IMG/VR virus record: IMGVR_UViG_3300034110_001237
Coordinates: 97,698-161,697 of that record
Length of the DNA: 64,000 bases
Strand: one strand, 5' to 3'
Source of the DNA: a virus
Below, in pieces: positions 1,023 to 60,066 of the stretch (position 1 is the first letter of the stretch; each line of letters starts with the position of its first letter). The position numbers were made by a program, and so were the translations under genes. The notes below the pieces were generated by a model. It made no database searches and was not told the DNA's origin. It saw nothing but the letters and a program-made list of their open reading frames with translations.

Positions 1023-1709
1023 ATGTCTATTATGACTTCGCTTGATACAGCATCATTGTTTTCTGTCGCAAGGCTTAAAACTCGGTTAAATCGAGAAAAC
1101 CTTTCAGAATTCATTCCATCTTCGTTCGTTTTTCAATCAGTCTCCATCATTGTCATGGTTCTTGCTTTTATCTATGGTATGAGCATTGATAGTCGTAAAA
1201 TCATAGTATTCAGTGCATTCAATGGGATTGCTTCCATTCTATTGTTCGGTTTGGTGTTATGGATGACTAAAATTAAAACGTTGCCTGATCGCTATTACAG
1301 TTGGTCTACTGCCATCAATTATGTGGGAGCAGTGTTTTCCATTCCTTATCTGATTTTTATTGACTATGAAGCTGTATTGGCATTTTCGACGATCTTCTTT
1401 TTCATCAACATTTTCAACCTTTGTGTTCTTCTTCATATTTTGAATTTTCGGTCTAATCATCACCACAGTTGGAATGCTCTTCGTCAAGTTACCGAATCGA
1501 AGAAAGGCTTCAAATTCAAGCTGACAATGGGGCTACGCCTTCATATGATTATGCCTATTGGTTTGATCAGTATTCATTTTGAAAGTATCACTATCAATCA
1601 TGTCGAACATGATTTGTACTATCTAACTAAACATTTCAAAGAATATGGACTAGACTTGTCTTCGGTTACTGATGATGATTTAAAACTTTGGGAAATGATT
1701 AACTATTGA
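1023..1709 (+). CDS. multi-pass membrane protein, paralog family A (C-terminal M-4 tail)
   Basis: ~4 hydrophobic segments; shares PDRYYS motif with 2474..3178; ends DDLKLWEMINY. Confidence 0.8.
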   Translation: MSIMTSLDTASLFSVARLKTRLNRENLSEFIPSSFVFQSVSIIVMVLAFIYGMSIDSRKIIVFSAFNGIASILLFGLVLWMTKIKTLPDRYYSWSTAINYVGAVFSIPYLIFIDYEAVLAFSTIFFFINIFNLCVLLHILNFRSNHHHSWNALRQVTESKKGFKFKLTMGLRLHMIMPIGLISIHFESITINHVEHDLYYLTKHFKEYGLDLSSVTDDDLKLWEMINY

Positions 1710-2395
1710 TTAAAATCAGGTGGTTTATGACTAATATTTTATTTTTTACACAACGTATGCTGGTCGCTTACACCTTTGGTTTTATGGGCATTCTGTGCTC
1801 TATTCTTATCGCGGCTTTACAGATAACAAAGATATCTGCTAGCGGTGATGTGCTATGGCTTTTATTGGCGTGTGGTTTTGCAGTGGCTGTATTTGTGGTT
1901 TATCTGGATAGCCGTCCAGTTCTTGACAATATTAATTACTATTCAAAATATGCCATGTTTAATTATGTGTTTAGTTTATATGTTGTGGCTCATTCAGTTA
2001 TCATGATTGGATCAAGTCAATTGTTTATACTGTTACCTGCCATGTTGCTAAGTGTTTTCAATATTTTCTTGTTTTCTAAAATCCATCATGGTCTTTCTGA
2101 ACACTTGATTATTCCAAGACTTCAACAATTATATAAGTTATTGCCAGAAATGCATAATGTTAATATTGATTTTGACTATACTTTTTTACGAAAAACAGAT
2201 CTTTTGATTTTTGAAAGAAGATTCTTTAAAATCATGACAACAATGGGTGAATTGCTTTTTGACGGCCATTATCTTTACTTGAACGGCTATAAGTATGAAG
2301 TCGATGCTTTTGTGGATGGATTTAAAGCTTGCTCTATCGACATTAACAGTTCAACACCAGAAGATGCTATGGTTATGCAAATGTATTGTGTATAA
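1706..2395 (+). CDS. multi-pass membrane protein, paralog family A
   Basis: same layout as neighbours; YYS motif; ends EDAMVMQMYCV; start uncertain. Confidence 0.8.
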   Translation: MIKIRWFMTNILFFTQRMLVAYTFGFMGILCSILIAALQITKISASGDVLWLLLACGFAVAVFVVYLDSRPVLDNINYYSKYAMFNYVFSLYVVAHSVIMIGSSQLFILLPAMLLSVFNIFLFSKIHHGLSEHLIIPRLQQLYKLLPEMHNVNIDFDYTFLRKTDLLIFERRFFKIMTTMGELLFDGHYLYLNGYKYEVDAFVDGFKACSIDINSSTPEDAMVMQMYCV

Positions 2396-2473
2396 TTGTA
2401 GCTTAATAAGTCATTTTTAGCTGTCTTATTTCTTTTCAATAGTGTATAATCAACATATATTTGAATCAACGCC

Positions 2474-3178
2474 ATGAGGTGTTTTATGAAAGCATTACAG
2501 TATTTGAAACAAATCACACCCTTGTTTATTATGCGGCAATACAACTTGTCCGCATTTTTGGTTTTGTTATGTTCATGTTTTGGCATGTATCTCACCATGT
2601 CACATATGGAACTTGGTGGTAATAAGTTCTTTATCATTGTTGGAGGTGTAACCTTAGTGACACTGGGGTTCGCTTTTGTCCTTCATGCGATGAATTACTT
2701 TGCTATGCCGCCTGACCGCTTCTATTCAGATTGGTCTTGGATGAATTATATTTTGGCTGGTGTTGTGTTGTTGTCAACTCTCACCATTCCAGAAGAAAGC
2801 CTTGTTAACTATTTGATTATTTTTTCTATTGCTATTCTCAACTTGTGTCTGTTTATGTCAAGCATGCAATTTAGAAGCACATATTCAACTGAAATCACTA
2901 AACTGCGAAAATTGTTTCCTGATGAAAAACAGTTCATGTTTGATTTTGACTTTGATTTTTCACGAGATTTTAAGGGCGTTGTCAATAAGAAAAAAGTAAA
3001 CTTTGGTATTTGTCTCTTAACAAATTCAGGTAAAATTGTTTTGGCGGGTGATAATTTTTATTTTGATGACAAACCTTATTCCGCTGATAAACTGGCAAAG
3101 GATCTTAAAGAATGTGAATTGAGTTTTAACAAGGCCAGTAAAGATGATTTGAAAGTTGTTGAAATGGCAACCTATTAA
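2474..3178 (+). CDS. multi-pass membrane protein, paralog family A
   Basis: PDRFYS motif; ends DDLKVVEMATY. Confidence 0.8.
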   Translation: MRCFMKALQYLKQITPLFIMRQYNLSAFLVLLCSCFGMYLTMSHMELGGNKFFIIVGGVTLVTLGFAFVLHAMNYFAMPPDRFYSDWSWMNYILAGVVLLSTLTIPEESLVNYLIIFSIAILNLCLFMSSMQFRSTYSTEITKLRKLFPDEKQFMFDFDFDFSRDFKGVVNKKKVNFGICLLTNSGKIVLAGDNFYFDDKPYSADKLAKDLKECELSFNKASKDDLKVVEMATY

Positions 3179-3235
3179 TTCGCTAGTTTTATTGCTCTAT
3201 TTACTGTATAATTTAGAAAATTTGGAGAGAGTTAG

Positions 3236-3745: not shown

Positions 3746-3759
3746 TTGAGGTTTTAATT

Positions 3760-4038: not shown

Positions 4039-4040
4039 TT

Positions 4041-4923: not shown

Positions 4924-4924
4924 G

Positions 4925-6025: not shown

Positions 6026-6619
6026 TTATTGATTTTGAAACTTGTCCCATTCTTCTTTGATAGTTTCCGAATCAACAAAGACGGCAAGGTTTTCATAGAC
6101 CACATCGTTAATCTTGATATTGCGATCTCGACCCACTGACATACCTAGAATAGCTGACTTGTCTGCAGAGTAGACTGGCCCACCTGACATACCACCAATC
6201 GTTCGAGAATCACTAATCGCATAACGGCCATCTTTAAATTCAACTTCGTCTTGAATGAACTTACCACGCAGTTCAACTGTCAGACCGTTGTCTTTTGGCC
6301 CCACATGAATGACTTCTTCATCGGCTTTTGGATTTCGCCATTCAATCGCTGGATTGAACTTATCGTTGGGCTTGTTCTTGAAGAATACCAGATCAACAGT
6401 ATCACTGACATACTCAGGATCTGCTGGGTATTTGTTATGCTTGGCGGTTACAGCATATTCACTATTCCATTGAATATAGCTTGCACTAATCACTTTACCG
6501 TCTTGTAGATCAGTGATTTTTTTGTAATTGCTGTTAGGGGCAGAACTGCAGGCAGTTACCAGTGCAACACACGCCATCACCAGAATCATTTTCAGCATTT
6601 TCAGCATTTTCATGAACAA
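6026..6619 (-). CDS. trypsin-like serine protease lipoprotein
   Basis: lipobox VTAC; TAKH, DL and GGMSGGP motifs give a complete His-Asp-Ser triad. Confidence 0.8.
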   Translation of the reverse strand: MFMKMLKMLKMILVMACVALVTACSSAPNSNYKKITDLQDGKVISASYIQWNSEYAVTAKHNKYPADPEYVSDTVDLVFFKNKPNDKFNPAIEWRNPKADEEVIHVGPKDNGLTVELRGKFIQDEVEFKDGRYAISDSRTIGGMSGGPVYSADKSAILGMSVGRDRNIKINDVVYENLAVFVDSETIKEEWDKFQNQ

Positions 6620-10405: not shown

Positions 10406-10479
10406 GGCTGCTTGGCAGAATGGTCATGTACCGGATTGCAAATCCGAGTATGGGGGTTCGATTCCCTCAGCAGCCTCCA
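10406..10479 (+). tRNA. tRNA-Cys(GCA)
   Basis: acceptor GGCTGCT/AGCAGCC, anticodon loop TTGCAAA, T-arm GGGGG-TTCGATT-CCCTC, U73 discriminator, encoded CCA. Confidence 0.95.
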
Positions 10480-10491
10480 ACTTTAAAACAT

Positions 10492-18153: not shown

Positions 18154-18354
18154 GTAAGAACTGCTGGGGAGCAGCGTAAGACCATTAGGAGCAGTTGTAA
18201 CAACCTCGCACATGAGAATGTCCGAGGTTTTTTGTTATCTATCAAAAAAAATAGATGACACATTTAAAGAGCCGACGAATGGCTCTTTTTTTGTTTAACT
18301 CTTTCATTTTTTACAATTTAAGCTATAATGGAGGTGCAAACTAAGGAGCTTACT

Positions 18355-19038
18355 ATGTTTAAACTAATGTGTATTGTATTTTCTGGCTTATTGATGACTG
18401 GGTGTGCTATTAACAACATTGGTAACACAGTGAATCGAAAAATGGATAATTATTCAATTATTGACACCATTACGGAACCACAAAACAAGCTGGATTACAT
18501 TCGTTTTGAATCACGTAAAACGGAAGCTGCAGACACCTATTTCTCAGTATCGAGTGGTGTTCAGTGGAATGATGATTATGTAGTGGCTTTAAAAACCACT
18601 GAAAGTGCAAATGATAAGTTTGCTTGTCTTAATGAATGTGGTGTTGTGTTTATTAAGAAACATAAACAAGAACCAGTACCGGAATGGCGTCATCGTATCA
18701 GTAATGAACCTGTCATTTTGCTGGGGGCTTCTGATAATATTGATGAAACCTTTGTTTATAAATCAATGGATATAGATGTTTCTGCTATCAGTGCAGACAT
18801 AACACCATATCCAGTATATGCGGTACCAACCACCATTGTAGAAAATAATGCAGAAGGTGGCCCAGTCTATGGCACTGATGGTAAAGTGATTGGTATCATT
18901 TCTGGTTTTGTGAATACTGTTGATGATACAGGTGAACGTTTGACTTATCTGGATGGTTTTGATTCTGGTTATTTTGCTTTGTATATTCCTTACAGTGAAT
19001 TGATTAGAGCTTGGGATTTAGTCAAGCCAACTAAGTAA
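18355..19038 (+). CDS. trypsin-like lipoprotein, predicted catalytically inactive
   Basis: lipobox MTGC; VQWNDDYVV; NAEGGPVYG replaces xMSGGP; catalytic His absent. Confidence 0.7.
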   Translation: MFKLMCIVFSGLLMTGCAINNIGNTVNRKMDNYSIIDTITEPQNKLDYIRFESRKTEAADTYFSVSSGVQWNDDYVVALKTTESANDKFACLNECGVVFIKKHKQEPVPEWRHRISNEPVILLGASDNIDETFVYKSMDIDVSAISADITPYPVYAVPTTIVENNAEGGPVYGTDGKVIGIISGFVNTVDDTGERLTYLDGFDSGYFALYIPYSELIRAWDLVKPTK

Positions 19039-19139: not shown

Positions 19140-19865
19140 ATGTTTAGACACGTCATTCTTGTTGCCATTACAAGCCTTATTATAGGTTGTTCGTTTAATG
19201 CTTCCAATTATGAAGCAGAGCAAGCTAAACAGCCTGTTAATGGTCTTAAAAACTACAATGTGGTTCAAGACGCCAGTGTCAACATGGGTGGACGCGATTT
19301 GACTTTCGTTACCTTTGAAAAAATGGTTGAAGTTCATATTGTTCAAAATGGTAAAACCATCACCGATACACAATCTCAGTATGGCAGCGGTGTTCAATGG
19401 AATGAAGATTATGTGGTGACAACTAAAACTGTCAATTTTGTAGATAGGTCTGATCAGCCATGTATCAAAGATTGTGAAATTCAATTTATCAAACGAAAAG
19501 CAACCGCTCCAGTTCCTGATTGGCGTTCTCATGTTGCCAATGAACGAATCACCTTTGTGGGAATTGAAAGCGAAGCTCGTTTTCGTGCTGAATTTGGTAT
19601 GGATTTGAACGTTAAGACCTATACCGAAACCAACACAAGCACATTGTTCAATATAGCAGACAATCAAATTGTTAATAGCATGTCAGGTGGGCCAGCTTAT
19701 GGTCTGGATGGTAAAGTGGTTGGCATCTTGACGGGTTCTACTGAGACAGCTAACCTCCGTAATTCAAATAATCGTAATTTGAGTAGCCGTGGCGAACGTT
19801 TGTCAGTCTATCTGTCCTATGAAGATGTGCAGAAAGAATGGGTTAAGTTTCAACAATCGCATTAA
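19140..19865 (+). CDS. trypsin-like lipoprotein, catalytic His missing
   Basis: lipobox IIGC; VQWNEDYVVTTKT; NSMSGGPAYG. Confidence 0.7.
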   Translation: MFRHVILVAITSLIIGCSFNASNYEAEQAKQPVNGLKNYNVVQDASVNMGGRDLTFVTFEKMVEVHIVQNGKTITDTQSQYGSGVQWNEDYVVTTKTVNFVDRSDQPCIKDCEIQFIKRKATAPVPDWRSHVANERITFVGIESEARFRAEFGMDLNVKTYTETNTSTLFNIADNQIVNSMSGGPAYGLDGKVVGILTGSTETANLRNSNNRNLSSRGERLSVYLSYEDVQKEWVKFQQSH

Positions 19866-26491: not shown

Positions 26492-27019
26492 TTATATCGT
26501 TAACATATTAGCGACTGTCAGCCTTTGATTAAATTCGACACTTGTAAAATTGTAGACACCGACTGTATACATTTCTGGCAACAGCTCTTTAAGTTCCGGC
26601 CCTTTGTAGTGTTTGGACATCATGAGTAATTTCAATAACTTCTCATCTAAACCCACATTAAAGTTACAGATGACTTTTTCATTGATATTACGTTGATAAC
26701 GATAAACAATATCATTCAGTTCAAGATGGTTTTCACCCTTGACATCTTCATAGAAAATCCAGAGCATCGAGCCATTGGCTTTGTTGTAAAAGGAGAATCG
26801 TAATCGTTTGAACTTACCATCATCAAAAATGGCATCGCAGTCTTCTAGCATCCCCGGAAAGGAAATGCCTAATGTTATAGTATCAAAGTTAAGTGTTGTC
26901 TTATAGATTAAGCCACAAGTTCCTTTGATAGCGGCGTCTTCGCACAGCACTTCGAAATAGCTGGGAAGCCCCCATTTATTTTTATCTTTGAAGTCAGTTA
27001 GGACAAATTTTTCATACAT
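26492..27019 (-). CDS. paralog family B protein (C-terminal M-4 tail)
   Basis: ends LLPEMYTVGVYNFTSVEFNQRLTVANMLTI. Confidence 0.8.
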   Translation of the reverse strand: MYEKFVLTDFKDKNKWGLPSYFEVLCEDAAIKGTCGLIYKTTLNFDTITLGISFPGMLEDCDAIFDDGKFKRLRFSFYNKANGSMLWIFYEDVKGENHLELNDIVYRYQRNINEKVICNFNVGLDEKLLKLLMMSKHYKGPELKELLPEMYTVGVYNFTSVEFNQRLTVANMLTI

Positions 27020-37346: not shown

Positions 37347-37970
37347 ATGAAGGCATTTTTTATTATGAGAGAAACGGTTTATTCATTAATTGATATCCCC
37401 ATTACTATTATTGATAATTATAAAGCACCTGCAAGTCAATTTCAGCATCAGCCTAGGGTTTTTCATTACAATCAAAATTTTTCAACATATGGTTGTAAAT
37501 TATCTCGTTACCAAAAACATGGTAAAAAGATTTTTAGATTTGAAGGTGATAAAACAATAAAACTAAGATCACAAGCATTTATTTTTGATATTCCACAATC
37601 AAATTCTGCTATTTTTTATATAAATTTTGATGCCTTCTTTAACATAGAGTCTGTTCTTTTTGAATCCAATTCAAAAGATATGGGAAAATTTTCATTTACA
37701 AAGATAAAGCTTAATTTTGACAAAAATTTAACTTTGATAGATTATGATTATTCATATGTTGAATTGAGAAATAAGATTGATATTTCTATAAAGAAAGATT
37801 TGAATAAATTAATGTCATTTGATGATGAAGTTATTTTGTGGCAGTTATTTAATCATCAATCTGATGAAGTTAAGTATTTGATTCCTGAGTATCATATTCC
37901 TTCTGCTTATAATTTTAAACATCCCGAATTCATAGATCGTTTGAATGTTCTGTCCATGTTAATTCTTTAA
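37347..37970 (+). CDS. paralog family B protein
   Basis: ends LIPEYHIPSAYNFKHPEFIDRLNVLSMLIL; start may be 37365. Confidence 0.8.
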   Translation: MKAFFIMRETVYSLIDIPITIIDNYKAPASQFQHQPRVFHYNQNFSTYGCKLSRYQKHGKKIFRFEGDKTIKLRSQAFIFDIPQSNSAIFYINFDAFFNIESVLFESNSKDMGKFSFTKIKLNFDKNLTLIDYDYSYVELRNKIDISIKKDLNKLMSFDDEVILWQLFNHQSDEVKYLIPEYHIPSAYNFKHPEFIDRLNVLSMLIL

Positions 37971-38004: not shown

Positions 38005-38697
38005 ATGCTAACTTTAACTAAAACACATATAGAAACAGAAGTCTTTAAAAAGACTATCTTGATTACGCCTGAGCATGGTTCCTATGAACAGTTTGTAAGC
38101 GAATATAAAAAAGATATTTTTAAAAAAGTTCAAGCGGTCATGGAATTCATCAGTCTTAAAATGGACGCAGAGTTACGATTTCAAGTCAATGACTTTGATA
38201 ATATCTATGAAATTGCTTTGATGAAATTTAATTTTAGAAAAGTTACAGAAGGTCGATATACCACTTGCATTATTACCTTTGATGGGTATCTAACCTTTGA
38301 GTGCAATTCATTTGCTTTTAAATTCGACAATGCTTATTCTTATTTTTACGCAACTTTGGATAAACAGTTAGATCTTGTTCATTTTGAATACTCATCAGTT
38401 CAATATGATAAACATAATGTTGATCGTAGCATCAACTTGAAGTTTGACAAAGACACTGATATGACAGAATATTATTACACAGTTCGCTCTACTTTTTTTG
38501 GATGGGAGATTGGTCGGTTAAAAAGCAAAGACATGCTTTGCCCTTATGCGGATGAATTGTTTTTACACGCTACCATTACAAAAAGAACACCTTTGATGGA
38601 TGATTTATTTCCAGAACTGTCTGTTGATGGAGTTTATGATTTTGCCTCAGATGACTTTAAACGTCGATTCACTTTATTTGAAATGTCATTAATCTAA
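38005..38697 (+). CDS. paralog family B protein
   Basis: ends FPELSVDGVYDFASDDFKRRFTLFEMSLI. Confidence 0.8.
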   Translation: MLTLTKTHIETEVFKKTILITPEHGSYEQFVSEYKKDIFKKVQAVMEFISLKMDAELRFQVNDFDNIYEIALMKFNFRKVTEGRYTTCIITFDGYLTFECNSFAFKFDNAYSYFYATLDKQLDLVHFEYSSVQYDKHNVDRSINLKFDKDTDMTEYYYTVRSTFFGWEIGRLKSKDMLCPYADELFLHATITKRTPLMDDLFPELSVDGVYDFASDDFKRRFTLFEMSLI

Positions 38698-38709: not shown

Positions 38710-39360
38710 ATGTCAACTGCATTAAAACAAGTCGATCCAGCCACTGGTGTAACTGAATTAGGTTATAATCGCTATATCGTTGAAAAAGTGATTGAAAAAG
38801 TTCATAGAATTTTTGGTCAAATTGAAAACAGGTTACAACTTAAATTTGAGTACAAACTTGTCTTGACTGATCATGGTCATTTATCTATTAATGGCGTTAA
38901 TAATCATGTCATTTCAAGTGATCCTTGGATAACCAGCAAAGGAATTCAAGAAATGAACTTCAGATGTTCTGGCTTTCCATTTACTTTGCGGGGTGGTGAT
39001 CGATCTAAACTTTCAATTAGTTTTAATAAATATTTTGATATTGAAGTTATTCATTTTACATGTATGTCAAAAAAAGCGAATCATTATGAAAAAATTGATG
39101 TTAGATTTGACAAAAATATAGAATTAGAATCTATCAACTTTAATCCCAATTATCCACAAACTGATACTGAGGTTTTTAAGTCCGTAAAACATAATAATCT
39201 TTTGTCATTTGATGATGAAGTTATTTTGTTTCAGTTATCACAAAATACAAGTGTTGAAATCAAAGAATTGATTCCAGAATATCACATTCCAGCAGCTTAT
39301 GACTTTTCATCACAAGATTTTGCTGACCGATTTAAAGTATTTTCGATGTTGACACTTTAA
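38710..39360 (+). CDS. paralog family B protein
   Basis: ends LIPEYHIPAAYDFSSQDFADRFKVFSMLTL. Confidence 0.8.
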   Translation: MSTALKQVDPATGVTELGYNRYIVEKVIEKVHRIFGQIENRLQLKFEYKLVLTDHGHLSINGVNNHVISSDPWITSKGIQEMNFRCSGFPFTLRGGDRSKLSISFNKYFDIEVIHFTCMSKKANHYEKIDVRFDKNIELESINFNPNYPQTDTEVFKSVKHNNLLSFDDEVILFQLSQNTSVEIKELIPEYHIPAAYDFSSQDFADRFKVFSMLTL

Positions 39361-39381: not shown

Positions 39382-40041
39382 ATGACCAATAAAATTAATG
39401 TTTCTTTTAAAATTGATAATATAGATATTTGTGATACTGGTTTTATTCAGGCTTCACAATTTATTAGAGATAAAATTCTGTCTGTTGTAAAATATCTTGA
39501 AAATCACTTTCATGTTTTAATAGATTTCACTTTCAATAATGGCAACCCTTTGACTATTAATGGAATGGCTCCTGTTGATATTACACTTAAAAAAGATTAT
39601 GTTAATGGACAAAATTCATTTTTAGCGGAATTTTCAAATCACTCAATTAAATTTAAAGCTAAGTTTTATGATTTTTCTTTAAGTAATGAATCTCAATTCA
39701 TTATTCATTTTAATTCCAATTTAGAATTAGAAAATTTAACTGTCATGTCAACTCGAAAAGATTTCAGTAAAAAAGAGCTTCAATTTTTAGTTTTAACCTT
39801 CGATAAAAATTTGAAATTGTTAAGTGTTCATCATACGAATAACTTTCAACAAAATTTAATAGAAAAACATGATTCCATGCTACTACCTTATTCTGATGAA
39901 TTACAATTGTTCCGTATTAGGGAATCCGATAAAAATGAACTTGTTGATGATTTTCCTGAATTCTATATTCCATCAGCATATAATTTCGAATCAGAAGATT
40001 TCAAAAATAGGTTAGCAGTTTATGAGATGATGATTACTTAA
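39382..40041 (+). CDS. paralog family B protein
   Basis: ends FPEFYIPSAYNFESEDFKNRLAVYEMMIT. Confidence 0.8.
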   Translation: MTNKINVSFKIDNIDICDTGFIQASQFIRDKILSVVKYLENHFHVLIDFTFNNGNPLTINGMAPVDITLKKDYVNGQNSFLAEFSNHSIKFKAKFYDFSLSNESQFIIHFNSNLELENLTVMSTRKDFSKKELQFLVLTFDKNLKLLSVHHTNNFQQNLIEKHDSMLLPYSDELQLFRIRESDKNELVDDFPEFYIPSAYNFESEDFKNRLAVYEMMIT

Positions 40042-42883: not shown

Positions 42884-43013
42884 TGGCGTCTTTTTTTGCT
42901 TTCAATTTCCCTATCAATCATCAATTTAAAGCCGTATTTGGTATTTAAAACTTGTTTTAGACACTGTTTTTTGATATAATAACTTACTTTCAAAGAGCCT
43001 AGGAGCTTTTACA

Positions 43014-45166: not shown

Positions 45167-46162
45167 ATGTCAAAAATCTTGACCGGCGATAGACCAACAG
45201 GTTCACTTCATCTGGGGCATTTTGTAGGTTCCTTACACAACCGTGTGAAACTTCAGCACTTGCACCAGCAAACTATTTTGATTGCTGATAATCAGGCGTT
45301 AACTGACAATATGGGAAATCCTACGAAAGTCCGTGATAACGTCATTGAAGTTGCTAAAGACTATCTGGCTTGTGGGATTGATCCTAGTAAGACCACTATT
45401 TGTGTTCAATCACACCTTCCGGCTATTGCCGAATTGACATTGCTGTATCTTAACCTTGTAACTGTCTCCCGTTTAGAACGGAATCCTACCATTCGTGATG
45501 AGATTAAAGCCAAGAACTTTGAGCGAAGTATTCCAGCCGGTTTCTTAGCTTATCCAGTAGCACAAGCCGCAGACATTACTGCATTCAAGGCCGATCTTGT
45601 TCCAGTCGGTGAAGACCAGCTTCCATTGATTGAGCAAGCGAATGAAATCGTCCACAAATTAAACACTCAGCTAGGCTTCGAAATTGTTCCATCCATAAAA
45701 GCTCTTACTTCAACAGTGGCACGACTACCAAGCCTTGATGGTAAGTCTAAAATGAGCAAATCGCTTGGTAATACTATCAATCTATACGCAAGCATGAAAG
45801 ACATTCAAAAGGCCGTCAATTTGATGTTTACTGACAGTAATCATCTTCGCGTTGAAGATCCCGGTAAAGTAGAAGGCAACGTGGTGTTTACTTACCTTGA
45901 TGCGTTTGATCCCGATGTGAATGAGGTGGCTAACCTGAAAGAGTTTTATCAGCGTGGTGGTTTAGGTGATGGCACTTTAAAAAAACGTCTGGTTGGTGTT
46001 TTAGAAACGGTTATTGCTCCTATCCGAGAACAAAGACTAATACTCAATACTCAGCATGATTTTGTACTTGATGTGTTGAAGCAAGGTACGTTTCAAGCAA
46101 AAGCTGAAACTGATCAAAACGTCAATGAGATTAAAGATGCTTTTGGTTTTTTTAAATTTTAA
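45167..46162 (+). CDS. trpS: tryptophanyl-tRNA synthetase
   Basis: ILTGDRPTGSLHLGH (HIGH), YPVAQAADI, VPVGEDQ, KMSKS. Confidence 0.97.
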   Translation: MSKILTGDRPTGSLHLGHFVGSLHNRVKLQHLHQQTILIADNQALTDNMGNPTKVRDNVIEVAKDYLACGIDPSKTTICVQSHLPAIAELTLLYLNLVTVSRLERNPTIRDEIKAKNFERSIPAGFLAYPVAQAADITAFKADLVPVGEDQLPLIEQANEIVHKLNTQLGFEIVPSIKALTSTVARLPSLDGKSKMSKSLGNTINLYASMKDIQKAVNLMFTDSNHLRVEDPGKVEGNVVFTYLDAFDPDVNEVANLKEFYQRGGLGDGTLKKRLVGVLETVIAPIREQRLILNTQHDFVLDVLKQGTFQAKAETDQNVNEIKDAFGFFKF

Positions 46163-46270
46163 ATCAATGGCAATTTTGAATAATTCTTGCTTATTTTAAC
46201 GATTTGCTGTATTATTGCGAAAACTATATTCATTCTATTTTTTTTCCACCTACTAATAAAGGAAGTAACT

Positions 46271-46603
46271 ATGTCTAACAACACTGAATTAAACGCTTAT
46301 ATCAAATCTAAAAAAGATCTTTTCATTGATAAAATGAAAGATAATATTGTAAAGATTGAAACTGACTTAAATGTTAAAATTGATTATTTGATTACTGAAA
46401 ATGATCATTCTGTTTTCATTAAAGGTGTTGACACTTATTCTTATTTTGCCTCGAAATGGTTTCCTGCAAAAATTAATCCAGACGTTAAGATGTGTTTCCG
46501 TTTGAAAGACAATCCTTCACTTGTTTCGAATAATAATAAATCGTTGCTATCATTTTCTATAAATGAAGATTTTGAAGTTTTAAATGTTCGTCTTAGAAAC
46601 TAA
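46271..46603 (+). CDS. short protein resembling the N-terminal part of family B
   Basis: AAGGA RBS; K......IE..L....Y..... and LS.S.N..F pattern as in 38710..39360; lacks the C-terminal tail. Confidence 0.55.
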   Translation: MSNNTELNAYIKSKKDLFIDKMKDNIVKIETDLNVKIDYLITENDHSVFIKGVDTYSYFASKWFPAKINPDVKMCFRLKDNPSLVSNNNKSLLSFSINEDFEVLNVRLRN

Positions 46604-50417: not shown

Positions 50418-50975
50418 ATGATGACTAATTTCAAAAAAGAAACTCAAAAGGAATTGGCTAAAGCGGTTGGATCTTTGAAAATAACCATTGCCAAAATCAG
50501 AACAGGTCGAGCACATCCTAGTCTATTAGATTCTGTAATGGTTGATCATCTCAATACCAAGACACCGATTAAACAAATGGCAAGCATTGTTGTTGAAGAC
50601 GCTCGCACACTCAAAGTGGTGGCCTTTGATAATAAGTTGATGGGTGCGGTAACCAAATCAATCTTGAATGCTGGCTTAGGACTAAACCCCTCCAATACTG
50701 GTGCGGCCATCTATGTTCCTTTGCCTATTATGACGGAAGATACTCGAAAGATGTATATCAAGCAGTTGCGACAAAGCATTGAAAATTCCAGAATTGTAGT
50801 TCGCAATCTCCGTCGAGATGCGTTCTCTATTTACAAAAAGCAATTGAAAAATAAAGAAATCAATGAAAATGATGAGCGACGACTCAGTAACTCGATTCAG
50901 AAAGAAATTGACGCGACTATGGCGATTATTGATGGACTTTTGGAACAAAAAGAAACAGAAATTATGGCGATTTGA
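50418..50975 (+). CDS. frr: ribosome recycling factor
   Basis: KIRTGRAHPSLLD, LGLNP, P.MTEDTRK, VRNLRRDA, KETEIM. Confidence 0.97.
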   Translation: MMTNFKKETQKELAKAVGSLKITIAKIRTGRAHPSLLDSVMVDHLNTKTPIKQMASIVVEDARTLKVVAFDNKLMGAVTKSILNAGLGLNPSNTGAAIYVPLPIMTEDTRKMYIKQLRQSIENSRIVVRNLRRDAFSIYKKQLKNKEINENDERRLSNSIQKEIDATMAIIDGLLEQKETEIMAI

Positions 50976-51463: not shown

Positions 51464-52246
51464 ATGAGTTTTAAAGCAGATATACAGAAATTTAGTTATC
51501 ATGAATGGAGCCAGTTTCCGGCAGAATTTCATGTAGCTATTAAAATGAAATTACTTACGTTGCTTAAAACTGTCTGCAACATCGATCTATCCACAATATC
51601 TTATGATGATGCAAATTATTTTCAATTCGACAGTGATTATAAACAACATCAGAAAATTAAATATCATTTTAATTATACAGGAACAGATGCTGGTGAAGCG
51701 GAAGCTCTTGTTATATTGAGTGGAGAACGATTTTTAGTCACTTTTCAGTTTTACAAAAAGGAAAAGCACCCTAACCTTCCAGCCGGAGCCTATTGTGTCG
51801 ATATCGACGTAGATGAATGGTTAAGATATATTCGTGCAGAATTTGAGACTCGCTATGATTTTGGCTGGAAATTGAGTAATCCGAAACATCGTGCGACTTT
51901 CTTTTTTTATAAAGTTCTTGATAAAAATCTTAAACTAAGCACAGTTATCAATTGTATCAATAGAAATAGTCGTAAAACACATACTTTGCTTAAACCAAAA
52001 GATCTTCCATTCTTGTTTTTTGAAAACAATCATCACTTTTATGACACGTTGAAAGAAATGTTAGAGTGTTGCGAGATGCAACCGAATCTATTCTATTCTG
52101 TATTTGCAGAATACCCAGATCATGTAGAATTAGCATCAAGCAGTGAATCTGTAAAAAAATTTCTGACCTTATACCATGACCAATTTACAAGGGATTCTTC
52201 GATTGTTGAATCAAGGCTTCTTTTACTCGAAATGCAGGCTATTTAA
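51464..52246 (+). CDS. paralog family C protein 1 (C-terminal M-4 tail)
   Basis: F..YP motif; ends SRLLLLEMQAI. Confidence 0.85.
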   Translation: MSFKADIQKFSYHEWSQFPAEFHVAIKMKLLTLLKTVCNIDLSTISYDDANYFQFDSDYKQHQKIKYHFNYTGTDAGEAEALVILSGERFLVTFQFYKKEKHPNLPAGAYCVDIDVDEWLRYIRAEFETRYDFGWKLSNPKHRATFFFYKVLDKNLKLSTVINCINRNSRKTHTLLKPKDLPFLFFENNHHFYDTLKEMLECCEMQPNLFYSVFAEYPDHVELASSSESVKKFLTLYHDQFTRDSSIVESRLLLLEMQAI

Positions 52247-52247
52247 T

Positions 52248-53045
52248 ATGACCACTATTCACACACAATTACTGATGAGCAAAAACATTCATAAGTTTGA
52301 TGATGATCTTAACAATCAAATCATTGAAAAGCTTTTACACATATTACAGTCTATTTTTGATGTCGATTTAATGATTGAATATAAAGATTTCATGTTAAAA
52401 CCAGTTTCATTTGGTATGGCTATTCATGTTGAATACTCGTTTAAATATGGAATGGTGTCTGTGTTAGCAAAAAATAATGAGATGACTGTTTCTTTTGTTT
52501 TTGATCGAGATAAATGCAATAATCTTTATATTCCATTTAACTGCACACGGTGCGAAGTTCTTGTTGATGATGATCTAAACTTTGAAAAAGCTGTTTTTAA
52601 TTTCTATTCAACCATTAATAAACCTAAAATTGAAACTAAATACGCTTCAAAATATGTCGGTTCAGTTTTGGTATCAGATCCTCATCATGCGACTATTGAT
52701 ATTCGTCGGACGATAGATAAACAAGGGAAATTTTCTACATGGATTACTTATGACAATTTTTATTCAAAACTGGGTGATTATACAGAATTAAATATTTCAG
52801 AATTGCATAAAGTATTCTTTACACCAGATAAGCATTTTGAAGAGTTCTTTGTTAAAATAATGATGACATTAAAGACACGGCCTCAAGAGTTTTCTTCTGT
52901 CTTTACTGATTACCCAACCCATACTCAAATTATGCACAATAAAACATTAGCGGTTAACTTTTTGAATTTGTTAGGCGATGACTATTTTAATCGTTTTCAT
53001 GTGTTGGAAGCTAACCTGTTATTACTTGATATGCAGGTCATATGA
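52248..53045 (+). CDS. paralog family C protein 2
   Basis: ATG 1 nt after previous stop; FKYG, VDDDLNF, F.DYP; ends LLLLDMQVI. Confidence 0.85.
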   Translation: MTTIHTQLLMSKNIHKFDDDLNNQIIEKLLHILQSIFDVDLMIEYKDFMLKPVSFGMAIHVEYSFKYGMVSVLAKNNEMTVSFVFDRDKCNNLYIPFNCTRCEVLVDDDLNFEKAVFNFYSTINKPKIETKYASKYVGSVLVSDPHHATIDIRRTIDKQGKFSTWITYDNFYSKLGDYTELNISELHKVFFTPDKHFEEFFVKIMMTLKTRPQEFSSVFTDYPTHTQIMHNKTLAVNFLNLLGDDYFNRFHVLEANLLLLDMQVI

Positions 53046-53046
53046 C

Positions 53047-53832
53047 ATGACTACACTCTTAGATAGAATTTCAATCATACAAAAAGAACAGCTTCCTGAT
53101 GATCTTGATTTTGACATTTCAAGTAAATTAAAAACATTGTTGAAAATTACTTTTAATGAAAACTTGTCAGACCCATATGATCTGAATTGTATTGAGCTTT
53201 TAGAGGTTTTTATTTATGACAACAATAAAAAAATAGACATTTCGTATTTTTTCAAATTTGGTATAGCTTTAATTTATTTTCATCGTGATCTTGGTATGTT
53301 GAAAGTTTTATTTCTATGTAATCAAAATAATAATAATTTATATAATTGTGATGTCAATTATGAAGTAGTTGTTGATGACGACCTTAATTTTCAAAGTTTC
53401 TCATTCTGGCGATTATTTGAATTCTCGAAGGACTTTAGAGACAATAAAAAATATACGGCGGCATGGTCAAACTTATTATTTCATATTGAAATGGATAATT
53501 TTTTCAATTTTAGTAAAAATTTTCTATATCGTAATGAAGAAAGTTATAATATATCACCAGATGATAAAAAAAATCTTTTTGATTATGGACTAAATCCTGT
53601 TTTTTATCTTTCTAGCCGTCATTTTGATGAGTTGTTGTTAAAATTTTTAAAATATTGCATAGTAAATACTCAACATTTTTATGTTATGTTTCCTCATTAT
53701 CCAAATCATATTTGCTGTATGCAATCACTCAGTAAAACAGTTGACTTGTTAAATATTTTTTGTGAAGAATATAGAGACAATTTGACAATTTTGGAGTATA
53801 ATCTCTTATTACTTGATATGCAGGGCATTTAA
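53047..53832 (+). CDS. paralog family C protein 3
   Basis: FKFG, VDDDLNF, FPHYP; ends LLLLDMQGI. Confidence 0.85.
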   Translation: MTTLLDRISIIQKEQLPDDLDFDISSKLKTLLKITFNENLSDPYDLNCIELLEVFIYDNNKKIDISYFFKFGIALIYFHRDLGMLKVLFLCNQNNNNLYNCDVNYEVVVDDDLNFQSFSFWRLFEFSKDFRDNKKYTAAWSNLLFHIEMDNFFNFSKNFLYRNEESYNISPDDKKNLFDYGLNPVFYLSSRHFDELLLKFLKYCIVNTQHFYVMFPHYPNHICCMQSLSKTVDLLNIFCEEYRDNLTILEYNLLLLDMQGI

Positions 53833-53833
53833 A

Positions 53834-54598
53834 ATGACTAACATCTATGACGCAATGGTACACTTTAAAAAGACCAAAGAATCTCTATGGGGGATTAGTC
53901 CATTGGTTAGCTCTAAACTTGTGCCCTTATTTCAACAGGCTACTGGCATAGAGCTTCTGGGTGATGAACAGCATTTCACCAACAATATCAGCGTCTGTGG
54001 TTTGGAAGTCGCTATGGATTACTTCTTTAAATACGGCTCAGCCACATTAAGTTTGAAAAATGATGAGCTAGAAGTAGGTTTTTATTTTATTAATAAACCA
54101 GATGATGTTTATCCGACTCCCTTTGATGCCAAACAATGTAGGGTTTATATTGATCGTGATTTTAACTTTAAACAGGCTATTTTCAATTATCATGTTAGTT
54201 TTTCCAAAGCTCTTCTAAATAATTATGACAAAAGTGCTGTATATGCAGCCATTAAAATTCAAAAAATCATTGAACAGGAATCAACAAGAACTACTTTTGG
54301 CTATCAAAATCTACTTTCTAAAGCAAAAGAGTATACGTCACTTCATGATAAAGGGCTTGATGAGGATTTCTTTGAAACTGATGTGAAATTTGAATTGTTT
54401 TTTGTTAAGTTCATGGAAACTTGTGCTAAAAGACCTTACGAGTTCTATGAATTATTTCCAGAATATCCAAGCTATATTGATTTCATGGAAAAGATGTACA
54501 AAGCAGTTGAATTCTTGAACCTATTTAACTTCCAATACATTAATCAGTTTGAGGTGTTAGAATCTAAACTTATCTTACTTGATATGCAGGTTATTTAA
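53834..54598 (+). CDS. paralog family C protein 4
   Basis: FKYG, IDRDFNF, FPEYP; ends LILLDMQVI. Confidence 0.85.
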   Translation: MTNIYDAMVHFKKTKESLWGISPLVSSKLVPLFQQATGIELLGDEQHFTNNISVCGLEVAMDYFFKYGSATLSLKNDELEVGFYFINKPDDVYPTPFDAKQCRVYIDRDFNFKQAIFNYHVSFSKALLNNYDKSAVYAAIKIQKIIEQESTRTTFGYQNLLSKAKEYTSLHDKGLDEDFFETDVKFELFFVKFMETCAKRPYEFYELFPEYPSYIDFMEKMYKAVEFLNLFNFQYINQFEVLESKLILLDMQVI

Positions 54599-54599
54599 T

Positions 54600-55406
54600 A
54601 TGAAAACAATTTATGAGCAATTGATGGAATTGAAAGATGTAAAAAGTCTTCATAGATCGGAGACAACTTTATTTTTAGGTGCCGATTGTATTGTTGGTGA
54701 CGATGTTATTGATGATATTTTAGTTAACGAGAAACTTATAGAGTTGTTTTACAAAGCTTACAGTATTCAAGAACCCCTTGAACAAATTTTTTTTGAGAGG
54801 AATATATCATCTATTGGCCTTCGAATAAGTGTCGCTTATAATTTTCAGTATGGTTCAGTTCACCTTGCAGTTGAAAACAACAAACTATTAGTGACTTTTT
54901 ATCATAAAGATGACTGGTTTAAAGCTCCATTTGGAGCAGATCGTTGTATGGTTTCTGTAGATCATAATTTGAATTTTATTCAATCTGAATATTCTACTTA
55001 TTTTGCATTTTTAAACAGTGTTCTGCATAACAATGGTGGGTATGCTGGATATAACCATATGCAGATTAAACAATTTACTGATTCTGCTGGTACACGCAAT
55101 CAACTTGCTTTTTGTCACCCTGATGACAATGACGATTTATTTAAAGCAGCACCAGAAGGCAAGCTGGATAAACGTTTTTCTATACCCAATGTTCAATTTG
55201 AGAATACATTTCTTCAAATTATTGATTTTGTGACAGATAGACCGCATGAATTTTATGCTATTTTTCCTGAGTATCCAAGTTTTTCTGAATGCGTAGATAG
55301 TGCAGATGGAATTATTAACTTTGTTAACTTATTTGTTGAACAGTATTTTAATGACAATGAACGCTTACAACAACACTTGTTATTACTTGATATGCAGGCG
55401 ATTTAA
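54600..55406 (+). CDS. paralog family C protein 5
   Basis: FQYG, VDHNLNF, FPEYP; ends LLLLDMQAI. Confidence 0.85.
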   Translation: MKTIYEQLMELKDVKSLHRSETTLFLGADCIVGDDVIDDILVNEKLIELFYKAYSIQEPLEQIFFERNISSIGLRISVAYNFQYGSVHLAVENNKLLVTFYHKDDWFKAPFGADRCMVSVDHNLNFIQSEYSTYFAFLNSVLHNNGGYAGYNHMQIKQFTDSAGTRNQLAFCHPDDNDDLFKAAPEGKLDKRFSIPNVQFENTFLQIIDFVTDRPHEFYAIFPEYPSFSECVDSADGIINFVNLFVEQYFNDNERLQQHLLLLDMQAI

Positions 55407-55407
55407 T

Positions 55408-56163
55408 ATGATGACACTTTATGAACAGTTTACTGCAGTTAGAACAGCCGAGAAAAACTGGATGTATAAACCTGATGTTCAACAAAAATTGATTGATATA
55501 TTTAAAATCGTTTGTAACATCGATCTTTCTAGTGAAGAGATTCCATTTAAACCAGATGGTGGATCTTTTGGAATGGAAATTGTGTATAACTATAAATTTA
55601 AATATGGTAGAGTCTATGTTCAAACTGAAAAACAAGAAATGCAAGTTATGTTTATTTTTGATAACCCTCATGAATTAAATATTCCTTTTACGAATCATTC
55701 ACGATCAAACCGTTGTACAGTTAAGGTTGATCATAATTTGAACTTTATAGAAGCTCGTTTTGGTTTTTACAGGTCTTTTTCCAATAGAACATTGGTTAAA
55801 GATGTCTCTGGTTACGTTTTATTTCGTTTTGAAACCATAAACGATGGTACTAACATCTTTAATAGTGTTTCTTACAGTTACAGCATGGAATCGGATGACT
55901 ATATAGATTTAATTCCCTATGGTCTTATCGATTATTCAATACCTAATAATGACTTTGAACAAATATTAATGGATTTTATGACTTTTTGTTCCGAAGAACC
56001 AGAAGATTTCTATAACGTTTTTGTTGAATATCCGAATTACGATGATCTTATGACCAGCGTTGACAACTTGGTTATATTCTTAAACCTTCTAAAACAACAA
56101 TACATTGAAAACAGAGAAATTTTGCAATCACGTATATTGTTATTAACCATGCAGGCAATCTAA
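55408..56163 (+). CDS. paralog family C protein 6
   Basis: FKYG, VDHNLNF, FVEYP; ends ILLLTMQAI. Confidence 0.85.
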   Translation: MMTLYEQFTAVRTAEKNWMYKPDVQQKLIDIFKIVCNIDLSSEEIPFKPDGGSFGMEIVYNYKFKYGRVYVQTEKQEMQVMFIFDNPHELNIPFTNHSRSNRCTVKVDHNLNFIEARFGFYRSFSNRTLVKDVSGYVLFRFETINDGTNIFNSVSYSYSMESDDYIDLIPYGLIDYSIPNNDFEQILMDFMTFCSEEPEDFYNVFVEYPNYDDLMTSVDNLVIFLNLLKQQYIENREILQSRILLLTMQAI

Positions 56164-56165
56164 TT

Positions 56166-56930
56166 ATGACCACTTTCTATGATAGACTTTTATTTGCAAA
56201 AGATTCAACTGACTTACTTTCCGATATTTTAGATGAAATCAGTCAAAAATTACTGCAATTATTGTATGAGTCTTGTCATATTGATTTATCTCATATTGAT
56301 GAACCATTCGTGATGGCTCATCTCGGTACAGATAAAGACTTACATATTCAATACAATACTGTTTTTGGTGGAGCTAACTTTTCATTATTATCTTCTACAC
56401 ATGAGCTAGAGGTTGAATTTGATTTTTCAAAGGAATACCCTACAGACTACTATTACAAGTCAAAATATTGTTACCTAGAAATTGATAATGATATGAACTT
56501 AAAAAAAACTAGATTCAACAACGCTTTTCCATTTTCAAAAGCTGTTTTGGACGGTGCGTATGCTAGTCATGTTTTTTCTTCTCTTCGTATTGATACTTAT
56601 GTTGACTATCTATCAAATGTGTCGAAACATTTTAGTTATGAAAACTACCTCTATCATACATTTCCAAAAGATATGCGAGCTTATGGATTGAGTGCTTATT
56701 TTTATTTTACGAATAAAGATTTTGAAGATCTGTTAGCCACTTTCCTATTTCTTGCGGGTAATCATCCTTTTATCTTTTATGAGTTCTTTAAAGAATATCC
56801 AAGCTATATTGACTTAATGAACAGTATTGATCATATGATTCAATTTTTGGAACTTTTCAAAAACCAATATATTAATGATCCTGATTTATTAAAATCAAAC
56901 ATATTGTTAATTGAAATGAAGTTAATTTAA
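56166..56930 (+). CDS. paralog family C protein 7
   Basis: IDNDMNL, FKEYP; ends ILLIEMKLI. Confidence 0.85.
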   Translation: MTTFYDRLLFAKDSTDLLSDILDEISQKLLQLLYESCHIDLSHIDEPFVMAHLGTDKDLHIQYNTVFGGANFSLLSSTHELEVEFDFSKEYPTDYYYKSKYCYLEIDNDMNLKKTRFNNAFPFSKAVLDGAYASHVFSSLRIDTYVDYLSNVSKHFSYENYLYHTFPKDMRAYGLSAYFYFTNKDFEDLLATFLFLAGNHPFIFYEFFKEYPSYIDLMNSIDHMIQFLELFKNQYINDPDLLKSNILLIEMKLI

Positions 56931-56993
56931 TTGACAAAATTGACATCAAAGTCATTTTAAATTAAACTTTCAAAACAACTATGAGGTGTTTGA

Positions 56994-57812
56994 ATGCTGG
57001 AGCGTATATTTAAAGCAAAAACTGATTATGACAAAGCTATTTTGGATAAAGTCGATGTGGCTGATTATAAACCCAAGATCACCTTCTTTACTGGCTCAGG
57101 CATCTCTCAAGAGAGTGGTTTGGAGACGTTTCGTTCCAGTGATGGTCTATGGTGTAATCACCGCGTCGATGAAGTAGCCACGGCCAAAGCTCTTCAAAAA
57201 GACTTTAAGAAAGTAAACAACTTTTTCAATGACAGACGTAAAGAAGTGTTGGCTGCTCAGCCTAATCGATCTCATCACATCCTAAAAGAACTAGAACAAT
57301 ACTTTGAAGTCATTGTAGTCACCCAAAACGTGGATGATTTGCATGAGCGAGCTGGTAGTTCAAAGATCTATCATTTACATGGTGAAATCATGCGTTCTCG
57401 CCCGGTCGGCAACTCAAACGTGTTCTACGACCAGAAGAAAGATATTAAGGTTGGTGACAAGTGCATGTTAACTAGATCACAAATTAGACCGCACATTGTT
57501 TTATTTGATGAGATGTTGGACGATGGGATCTTGTCAAACGCTCGAAAGCATATCAGAGAGTCCGATGTGTTTGTGGTAGTGGGTAGCAGTTTACAAGTTG
57601 AACCTGCAGCTTCTCTGGTGGTTGAGGGCTTTGGTTTGCGTGATTTTGTTTTGGTCGATCCAAACACTGTCTTTATGAAGTACAATGCCAACTATGTGCA
57701 TGTTAAAGAAAATGCCTCAGTAGGACTTGAAATGATGTTGCCTCAGTTAATTATTAAAGCTGGCTTGCTTCAAGCAGATTTCAAAGCAAACAAAGAACGA
57801 TTGAAACCATAG
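56994..57812 (+). CDS. cobB: Sir2-family NAD-dependent deacylase (CobB-like)
   Basis: TGSGISQESGLETFR, TQNVDDLHERAG, HLHG, RPHIVLFDE, VGSSLQV.PA. Confidence 0.9.
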   Translation: MLERIFKAKTDYDKAILDKVDVADYKPKITFFTGSGISQESGLETFRSSDGLWCNHRVDEVATAKALQKDFKKVNNFFNDRRKEVLAAQPNRSHHILKELEQYFEVIVVTQNVDDLHERAGSSKIYHLHGEIMRSRPVGNSNVFYDQKKDIKVGDKCMLTRSQIRPHIVLFDEMLDDGILSNARKHIRESDVFVVVGSSLQVEPAASLVVEGFGLRDFVLVDPNTVFMKYNANYVHVKENASVGLEMMLPQLIIKAGLLQADFKANKERLKP

Positions 57813-57822
57813 GAATTTTATT

Positions 57823-58923
57823 TTGTTTAATTTATTTAAGCGTTTTAAATCAAAGCTATACCCTGCTGGTTTCTGGTGTGGTGCTATCTTTGTGAGTAAG
57901 AACAATATTAATGTCGATAGTGGTATTAAAACTATTTATTCTTGTGCTTTTTTTGATTTTAACATTGAGCTTGAATATGATATATATGATTATACGACTA
58001 ACATATTAGGTGTAAGCACAATTTCTTTTAAAAATACCATTATCAACAAAGAAAATCATAATTTAAAATTAACAAAATTGTCGCCTATTGAATATGCTAA
58101 AAAATATTTTAACAATACCATTAAATATATTCAAACACTTAATACAGATTCTTTAACTGTTTCATTACCATTTTTTCAAACAGAAGCATTGAGACAATCA
58201 AAAAGTATTTGTCTCAATTTGGCTTCTATCTACACTTATGGAAGTATTTATAACGTTATGGTTAGGCAAGATGAAACAGCTAGCTATAATTCTTATTTAA
58301 ATAGACACAAAAAACTGCTTTTAAATACTTTTCAAATTATTACTTTTAATAATATGGTATTTAATTATATTTATACAACTGAATATAATCACCTTTCAAA
58401 AATATATAAAAATAGATTTGAACAAATTGAAAAAATTAATATTGAATTAACAATTGTCCTAAAAAACAATCTTTTTACATTACAAGAATATAATTCCAAA
58501 GATCCATCTGTTCTTGTTAATCATGATAAAAATGCTTTCTTGTTATATCAGGTTATTAAATCTGAAAAATACTATTTTGGTTCTCATTTTGAACATGTCG
58601 ATGAGTTATTTAATAATATTTCAATAGGTTTATTCTGGCATGTTGATTTTCAGCATAAGCAAAGCTCCTTACATATTTTAATTTATGATGATGATAAATT
58701 TATTCAAGAATACAACCATTCAATGGAGACTAAATTTAACGATGACTTGTTAGATGTTAATTATTATTCAGGCTATATCAATAATATTGTGGATAAACTA
58801 ATTCATTGTTATTATCCAAGACGAAAAATGATTGAGTTAATGGACAGTGAATCATTGCTTGACACCTTTGATGGAACATTGAATGAAGATGAATATTATT
58901 TATTTAAAATGATTAATATCTAA
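57823..58923 (+). CDS. paralog family D protein (C-terminal M-4 tail)
   Basis: paralog of 58990..60066; ends EDEYYLFKMINI. Confidence 0.8.
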   Translation: MFNLFKRFKSKLYPAGFWCGAIFVSKNNINVDSGIKTIYSCAFFDFNIELEYDIYDYTTNILGVSTISFKNTIINKENHNLKLTKLSPIEYAKKYFNNTIKYIQTLNTDSLTVSLPFFQTEALRQSKSICLNLASIYTYGSIYNVMVRQDETASYNSYLNRHKKLLLNTFQIITFNNMVFNYIYTTEYNHLSKIYKNRFEQIEKINIELTIVLKNNLFTLQEYNSKDPSVLVNHDKNAFLLYQVIKSEKYYFGSHFEHVDELFNNISIGLFWHVDFQHKQSSLHILIYDDDKFIQEYNHSMETKFNDDLLDVNYYSGYINNIVDKLIHCYYPRRKMIELMDSESLLDTFDGTLNEDEYYLFKMINI

Positions 58924-58989
58924 AAAAAACAATGATTTTGACATTTTATTTTAAGTTGGTAGACTTTTTAAAGCATTAAGGAGTCTTCT

Positions 58990-60066
58990 TTGCTTAAACT
59001 AATTAATTTTTTCAAAATAAAACAAAAAAAATCTGGCTTCTATGCTAATGATTTGTTTGTTGATGAGATTAAAACCCCTATTTACGATGGCGTTTCTTGG
59101 TTGTGGACGTGTTCTTTTTCTGGTTTCACTCTTCGATTTGAGTACAACGAATACAATTATACAATCAATGAATTTGGCACATTTACGGTTCTTTATAAAG
59201 AAACAGTTGTCTATCAAGATATACCAAATTTGTCTTTAAATGGTGTACCACTCCTAGTTTACTTAAAAAAATATTTTGAGTCATTGATTGCTCATGTCCA
59301 AAAAATTGATTCTAATCATTTAGATATCATACTTCCATTACTCAAAACAAAAGTCTTTACACATACTAGGACTCTTGAATTGCAATGCTTATTGCAGTAT
59401 CCTACTGGATTTTTTTATAAAGTGCTATTTTCATTGACTGTAGATGCGGATTATAATGCAGTTCTTCGTAGCCATTCTGGCTGGACTGATTTTAAAATTG
59501 TAAGTTATGACAATAAAATATTCAGCTATTTGTATAATGAAGAACATAATTATTCTAATACGACTTTGATTAATCGCCTTCGATTAATAACTCAAGAAAT
59601 CTATTATTTACTTTATGATACTGGTTATACTTTACATCAATACAGAACCACAAATACGGATATTTTTTATGATACTTATTCTCAATCGGTACTTTTGTAT
59701 ACTGTAATAGATTGTAGACCTTCTTATTTCCCATCTGAAACCAAACCAGAATTTTTTAATAACATATCAATTCATCTTTTTTGGCAAGTTAATGAGAACG
59801 AACAATCAACAGAATTGACTATTTTTATTTATAATAAAAATGTATTAATTGAAGAATATAGGCATTCAATGGAAAAAATATTTACAAAGAATACAATTGA
59901 CATTCAGTATTATTTGAGCTTTTTTAATGACACACTAGAAAAATTAGTTCTTTCTTATTTTCCCAGCCGAAAACTTCTTCAATTATTAGAAATTGATCCA
60001 AATGATAATTTCAATGGAAGACTGACCGAAGACCAATATTATTTATTTAAAATGATTCATATTTGA
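58990..60066 (+). CDS. paralog family D protein
   Basis: FNNISI.LFW.V, EY.HSME; ends EDQYYLFKMIHI. Confidence 0.8.
   Translation: MLKLINFFKIKQKKSGFYANDLFVDEIKTPIYDGVSWLWTCSFSGFTLRFEYNEYNYTINEFGTFTVLYKETVVYQDIPNLSLNGVPLLVYLKKYFESLIAHVQKIDSNHLDIILPLLKTKVFTHTRTLELQCLLQYPTGFFYKVLFSLTVDADYNAVLRSHSGWTDFKIVSYDNKIFSYLYNEEHNYSNTTLINRLRLITQEIYYLLYDTGYTLHQYRTTNTDIFYDTYSQSVLLYTVIDCRPSYFPSETKPEFFNNISIHLFWQVNENEQSTELTIFIYNKNVLIEEYRHSMEKIFTKNTIDIQYYLSFFNDTLEKLVLSYFPSRKLLQLLEIDPNDNFNGRLTEDQYYLFKMIHI

Follow-up and report, generated by a model that had tools for sequence, protein, structure and literature searches.

A stop-anchored C-terminal tail with methionine at position −4 marks a fast-evolving protein set of a phage-like element

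We analysed a 64,000-nt stretch of viral DNA (hereafter the window), which is the final stretch of IMG/VR record IMGVR_UViG_3300034110_001237; the record is 161,697 bp in length, is labelled a provirus and has an estimated CheckV completeness of about 50%. Eighteen proteins encoded in the window share a C-terminal tail, in which Met occupies the fourth position from the end (−4). This tail is the sole sequence-conserved element of a very large, lineage-specific and fast-evolving protein set, most members of which are 200–300 amino acids (aa) in size. We describe the motif, its register, the selective constraint acting on it and its spread across the lineage, and weigh what the tail may be for. 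The initial annotation of the window had assigned the 18 C-termini to four families (A–D), and all 18 were found at the genes listed in Table 1. It had also pointed to one near-fit, encoded at 61259..62299; the product of this gene does end in LLVVEALFI, without Met at −4.

The tail is much more frequent than expected from the background. Among the 246 non-overlapping open reading frames (ORFs) of the whole record, 57 have Met at −4, compared to a background Met content of 2.46% (binomial P about 1e-37, with paralogy ignored); at the other C-terminal positions between −1 and −15, Met occurs in 1–11 ORFs each. BLAST clustering sorted the carriers of the record into about 10 families and about 12 singletons. 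In a broader survey of six related records, the tail was present on 245 of the 872 ORFs of at least 150 aa, which form ∼55 BLAST groups once the tag is removed. The tail-bearing (tagged) genes lie on both strands, and they include the last genes of operons, directly before terminators.

The register of the tail is fixed relative to the stop codon, as had been proposed at first. In three records with 479 ORFs of at least 150 aa, a seven-residue tag pattern falls at the exact C-terminus of 114 ORFs; a single ORF has it shifted inwards by one residue, where the internal density of the pattern predicts 0.4 per position. When the remaining tag positions are given, Met fills −4 in 172 cases (94%), compared to 6 for Ala, 3 for Ile and 2 for other residues. 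The family-weighted consensus has Thr or a hydrophobic residue at −13, Asp at −11, a hydrophobic residue at −9, Leu, Val or Ile at −7, Leu or Ile at −6, Glu or Asp at −5, Met at −4, a hydrophobic residue at −3 and an Ile-like residue at −1, followed by the free carboxylate; positions −8, −5 and −2 are polar. The family-weighted share of hydrophobic residues is 98% at the last position and 75% at −3. The tail corresponds to the final three or four turns of the helix at the C-terminus, and an S/T-x-x-D/E helix cap often precedes it.

Conservation of the tail acts on the protein, because the codons for the hydrophobic positions −9, −7, −6, −3 and −1 vary freely; the DNA past the stop codon is unrelated. 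Compared to the orthologues in the related record G003, the median identity is 47% for tagged and 74% for untagged proteins (P 2.5e-10). Within the tagged orthologues, the last ten residues are 71% identical, whereas the identity of the remainder is 49% (P 2e-8). Of 40 orthologue pairs, 38 retain Met −4; in one of the remaining pairs it is replaced by Ile, and the other probably does not involve a genuine tag. With the closer record G001, tagged genes have a ratio of nonsynonymous to synonymous substitution rates of 0.158, compared to 0.095 for untagged ones, and no pair is above 1. The tagged genes are real genes, which are under purifying selection and drift faster than their neighbours.

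The tail is also widespread among relatives of the element. Family B alone comprises 131 clusters at 50% identity; 108 of them have Met at −4, the remaining clusters mostly have Ile, Leu or Val at this position, and nearly all share the register of the end. Family C has 30 database relatives, several of them on contigs that measure 0.44 to 1.86 Mb, and the order of genes around it (tryptophanyl-tRNA synthetase TrpRS, ribosome recycling factor RRF, the family C array and Sir2) is kept in the relatives. Syntenic relatives of window positions 43000–64000 (loci L007, L013 and L014) belong to metagenome contigs of 1.85, 1.84, 1.86, 1.28 and 1.04 Mb. The tail and the run of orphan genes continue past the provirus border given by IMG/VR; the provirus label may be an artefact of boundary calling on a megabase-sized phage-like genome. 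The distant record G004 has a GC content of 31%, and only 12 of its 198 ORFs match the record of the window (G000), yet Met occurs at −4 in 45 of the 198. The tail was also seen at loci L036 and L039. Distant relatives thus bear the tail on largely different proteins. One database protein, P0068, a relative of the family C product of 56166–56930 and of L010:3478–4131, is an in-frame chimera of families B and C: residues 1–76 are derived from a gene of family B (75% identity), and the final 126 from one of family C (87% identity). The two parts join at a shared DG(A/S)YA microhomology; the chimera arose by a natural deletion of about 9 kb or is an artefact of assembly.

We tentatively favour, at a strength somewhat short of probable, the reading that the tail is a docking handle, whose free Met-x-x-Ile end is recognised by one constant partner. 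The bodies would then diverge, probably since each binds a different target; the handle would stay fixed since a single unchanging partner, acting in trans, would recognise Met-x-x-Ile together with the free carboxylate. A constraint imposed from outside is suggested because the tail is fixed, with its invariant Met and exact end, while the bodies diverge without a second conserved element. An external partner is also favoured over family-specific packing because the constant tail sits on very different bodies. The initial annotation had proposed a docking signal with a common partner. This is partly supported: the tail is stop-anchored, under purifying selection and recurrent on different proteins, which fits a constraint from something constant outside the bodies; no reader was found. 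The role in secretion or virion loading that it had also suggested gained no support. Extended −10 promoters of the sigma-70 type, together with terminators, flank the tagged operons, and the T4-late-type motif TATAAATA was not seen upstream of these operons. Because the promoters are of the host sigma-70 type and the T4-late motif is missing, the tagged genes probably encode early, host-directed proteins, by analogy with T4.

Several observations weigh against an external partner. None was identified, and no protein of known function carries the tail in the records searched, in which no polymerase or clamp gene was found. A more distant relative that has a ClpA gene contains no tagged ORF in a 22-kb sample. 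The tail is strongly hydrophobic (7 of the 10 final positions), and in the family C model its helix is predicted with confidence (residues 241–250, predicted local distance difference test (pLDDT) 94); both features fit packing of the tail onto its own body. The carriers fall in a narrow range of size: the tail is present on 36% of the ORFs of 200–250 aa and 59% of those of 250–300 aa, and on about 0–3% of those below 160 aa. In addition, none of 86 tagged proteins compared with Pfam has a convincing domain (two matches are marginal), whereas 134 untagged ORFs match 27 families; only one of the 86 matches a PHROG, which is of unknown function. Pfam also gave no match for ten longer relatives of family B. 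The narrow size range and the lack of convincing known domains both count against the handle, because they are expected if the tail was simply inherited within one superfamily.

Such inheritance is the main rival to docking. In this case, the carriers would form one hyper-diverged superfamily, which descends from an ancestor of about 200–250 aa with an N-terminal helix, a β-meander and C-terminal helices; the tail would plug the hydrophobic core of its own protein, with no outside reader. We lean against this account but take it as a serious one. That the four families are unrelated, as initially described, could not be secured. Besides the size range, the missing domains and the hydrophobic, confidently modelled tail helix, the models of families B and C have the same order of elements, namely an N-terminal helix, about eight strands and C-terminal helices, with the tail in the last helix; the family C model has a pLDDT of 89, the family B model, with 62, is weaker. 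Profile comparisons of the bodies gave significant links for C8–C15 and C6–C12 only; there are weak but long alignments for C1–C9 (172 columns), C1–C2 (95 columns) and C8–C11 (223 columns), the comparison of the A2 and A3 bodies gave an E of 0.06, and that of families B and C was not significant. One carrier of 492 aa in record G004 has the common phage domain phrog_21276 fused before a C-terminal part of about 230 aa that bears the tail.

One very diverged superfamily of carriers is therefore plausible, but three points do not fit a tail that only packs into its own core. First, buried helices in families diverged to such a degree usually keep their hydrophobicity, not a Met in 94% of cases nor an exact end. 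Second, the body profile comparisons revealed no other residue or element that is conserved across families and could form a matching pocket. Third, family A departs from the other families: each of its three members has 3–4 predicted N-terminal transmembrane (TM) segments, and the tail sits on the soluble C-terminal part of about 100 aa behind them. No TM segments are predicted in the other families, so the contrast in topology noted at the outset was confirmed. When the family C model was used to look for similar folds (PDB Foldseek, BFVD, ESM Atlas and VIA-align wide), no match was convincing, the best having a Z of 6.8 over 102 residues, and sequence look-ups in ESM Atlas gave nothing usable. 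A prediction of the family C homodimer scored 0.00, which gives no verdict on binding in either direction.

Within the docking reading, we would assign, as a guess, about a third to an AAA+ unfoldase or protease as the reader, for example the ClpA homologue of the clade, about a sixth to a sliding clamp, and the rest to something else. The trypsin-like paralogues encoded in the window were considered as readers and rejected as unlikely; they have no PDZ domain. An extended form of the docking reading, which we hold as doubtful, is that of an adaptor repertoire: hundreds of fast-evolving early proteins, each binding a different host or rival target, would dock through the Met-x-x-Ile helix on one hub, such as a ClpA-type unfoldase of the element.

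A protease could also read the tail as a degron, in which case early proteins would be delivered for timed removal to an AAA+ protease, either of the host (ClpXP, ClpAP, FtsH or Lon) or of the element itself (its ClpA homologue). Nonpolar C-terminal residues destabilise bacterial proteins, and tags of the ssrA type are read by ClpX, ClpA and FtsH. Like these degrons, the tail has a free nonpolar end, always at the stop codon, and can be attached to any body; the promoters of the tagged genes are of the early type, and an AAA+ unfoldase, the ClpA homologue, is conserved in related elements. Different from the LAA-type tags in sequence, however, the tail is predicted to lie in a stable, cap-preceded helix and not in a floppy end. 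No ClpA gene was found in the five records of the window's own group that were analysed, and the ClpA-bearing relative mentioned above lacks tagged ORFs in its 22-kb sample. We regard timed degradation as unlikely. The syntenic neighbours of the ClpA homologue are a PPAT/CoaE fusion, a radical SAM protein, YqeY, a dCMP deaminase and a Pnkp-like kinase-phosphatase-ligase; at L079, a weak match to methionine sulfoxide reductase (PMSR) adjoins it.

Less probable still is that the tail is a PIP-like peptide binding the sliding clamp, as found on DNA polymerases of the T4 type, which would make the carriers clamp clients. The C-terminal peptide of RB69 gp43 (PDB 1B8H) docks the protein to its hub by binding a hydrophobic pocket of the gp45 clamp, and the PIP consensus permits Met at the central position (PMC3012046). 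Like the tail, this peptide lies at the extreme C-terminus. Its end, SLFDMFDF, follows the register of the tail: a hydrophobic pair (Leu −7 and Phe −6) precedes an acidic residue (Asp −5) and Met −4, and the last residue is hydrophobic (Phe −1). The element also has the T4-type genes RegB, Rnl1 and Rnl2. However, peptides of the gp43 type are flexible and aromatic and are confined to one or a few proteins of replication or transcription, whereas the tail does not contain the PIP-box pair of aromatic residues, is helical and cap-preceded, and sits on orphan proteins. The carriers make up a quarter of the proteome and include proteins with 3–4 TM segments, which is implausible for a clamp clientele, and none of the 86 tested carries a DNA-enzyme domain. 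Searches of five partial records with PF02916 (clamp) and PF00136 (polymerase) gave no match.

Finally, the conserved feature could lie in the DNA or in translation, for example as a recombination site or as a signal (ATG or ribosome-binding site) used by the following gene, and in family C the ATG-CAG-G about 10 nt before the next start could indeed serve as a Shine-Dalgarno site; this is scarcely credible for the tail as a whole and was rejected, being largely refuted by the codon variation and the unrelated downstream sequence, while the tail also occurs on operon-final genes before terminators and on both strands, and Ile, Leu or Val replaces Met in distant members of family B.

Further afield, several known systems resemble the tail in part. 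The ankyrin/PRANC (F-box-like) host-range proteins of poxviruses are large, fast-evolving multigene families of accessory genome regions, in which a variable body is joined to a constant C-terminal motif that docks on one host hub. An adaptor repertoire of tail carriers would be comparable to them in logic only; the poxvirus families belong to eukaryotic viruses and the ubiquitin system, differ in sequence and fold, and show no homology. The capsid-targeting sequence of T4, found on IPI–III and Alt, is likewise a short terminal address label common to unrelated proteins of T4-type phages. Different from the tail, which is C-terminal and lies on genes with early-type promoters, it lies at the N-terminus, is cleaved off by the prohead protease and marks late proteins packaged in the virion. 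The Dot/Icm (type IVB) signal lies at the C-terminus of hundreds of orphan effectors, with acidic residues and a hydrophobic residue near −3 or −4. This signal is looser than the tail: none of its residues is invariant, and its register is not fixed. It also depends on a type IV secretion system, and no such system was seen in the element, which is phage-like. In the literature searched, neither this tail nor phages of this type above 1 Mb are described. The tail may be a further example of terminal motifs for docking or addressing, and there is some chance of a new adaptor system.

Should the tail prove to be a docking handle, a single peptide would open about a quarter of the proteome to experiment, in a group of enormous, uncultured phage-like elements that otherwise defy annotation; the hub could be named through the tail peptide, and each body would be a candidate specificity module. 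The conservative reading, in which the carriers share an ancestor, still defines a very large new protein superfamily with a sharp diagnostic signature; family B alone contributes 131 clusters, and the family C fold, which is modelled with confidence, has no clear structural match.

The tagged genes of the window and selected other genes are listed in Table 1. Family B proteins have a conserved C-terminal module, PE..(A/V)Y(D/N)F.S.(D/E)F..R......M..(hydrophobic). One further ORF, at 46187–46603 on the plus strand, encodes 138 aa and was grouped with family B by BLAST; it has no tail, ends in NVRLRN and may be a truncated or decayed family B paralogue. In the family C array, the tail codons ATG-CAG-G may double as the ribosome-binding site of the next gene. 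Relatives of the near-fit protein in related records end in EAMFI, EAIFI or EAMVI.

Table 1. Tail-bearing genes and other features (window coordinates unless a locus is named)
Feature	Coordinates	Strand	Remarks
Family A paralogue 1	1023–1709	+	ends WEMINY
Family A paralogue 2	1706–2395	+	ends MQMYCV
Family A paralogue 3	2474–3178	+	ends VEMATY
Family B paralogues	26492–27019, 27021–27533	−	endings ANMLTI, ANMVLI
Family B tandem, four paralogues	37347–37970, 38005–38697, 38710–39360, 39382–40041	+	
Family C array, seven head-to-tail paralogues	51464..56930	+	24–34% identity; all endings L..M..I
Family C starts	51464, 52248, 53047, 53834, 54600, 55408, 56166	+	1–2 nt intergenic (TAA-N-ATG)
Family D paralogue, 366 aa	57823–58923	+	ends LFKMINI
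Family D paralogue, 358 aa	58990–60066	+	ends LFKMIHI
Variant tail, 346 aa	61259..62299	−	ends VVEALFI, Ala replaces Met at −4
Trypsin-like peptidase (Trypsin_2)	6026–6619	−	
Trypsin-like peptidase (Trypsin_2)	18328–19038	+	
Trypsin-like peptidase (Trypsin_2)	19140–19865	+	
CDF cation-efflux transporter	27705–28703	+	
TrpRS	45167–46162	+	68% identical to Acinetobacter-labelled record
RRF	50418–50975	+	ORF assigned by synteny
Sir2 deacetylase	56994–57812	+	
ClpA homologue, 765 aa	L060:1545–3842 in G004	−	TIGR02639 782 bits, IGF loop at residue 614; also L077, L079

We regard the element as T4-related, phage-like and possibly megabase-sized; its relatives assemble into contigs of 1.0–1.86 Mb. 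Profiles for the Gp23 capsid protein, terminase, tail sheath, family B polymerase and gp45 clamp found no match in the partial records searched, none of which is a full genome. GenBank phages gave no match by megablast with 20 kb of sequence, nor by tblastn with the family C and family B proteins. A scan of genome contigs with TrpRS returned an unrelated Bacilli metagenome-assembled genome as its sole match. The untagged genes include T4-type RNA ligases 1 and 2 (Rnl1 and Rnl2), RegB and HNH endonucleases, and there are PHROG matches annotated as “virion structural protein”. Genes of cellular type are also present, namely those for TrpRS, RRF, the CDF transporter, Sir2, a signal peptidase and an NAD kinase. 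The three Trypsin_2 paralogues match phrog_9683, which is annotated as “protease”. As identified by ARAGORN, the only tRNA gene in the window is that of tRNA-Cys at 10406–10479.

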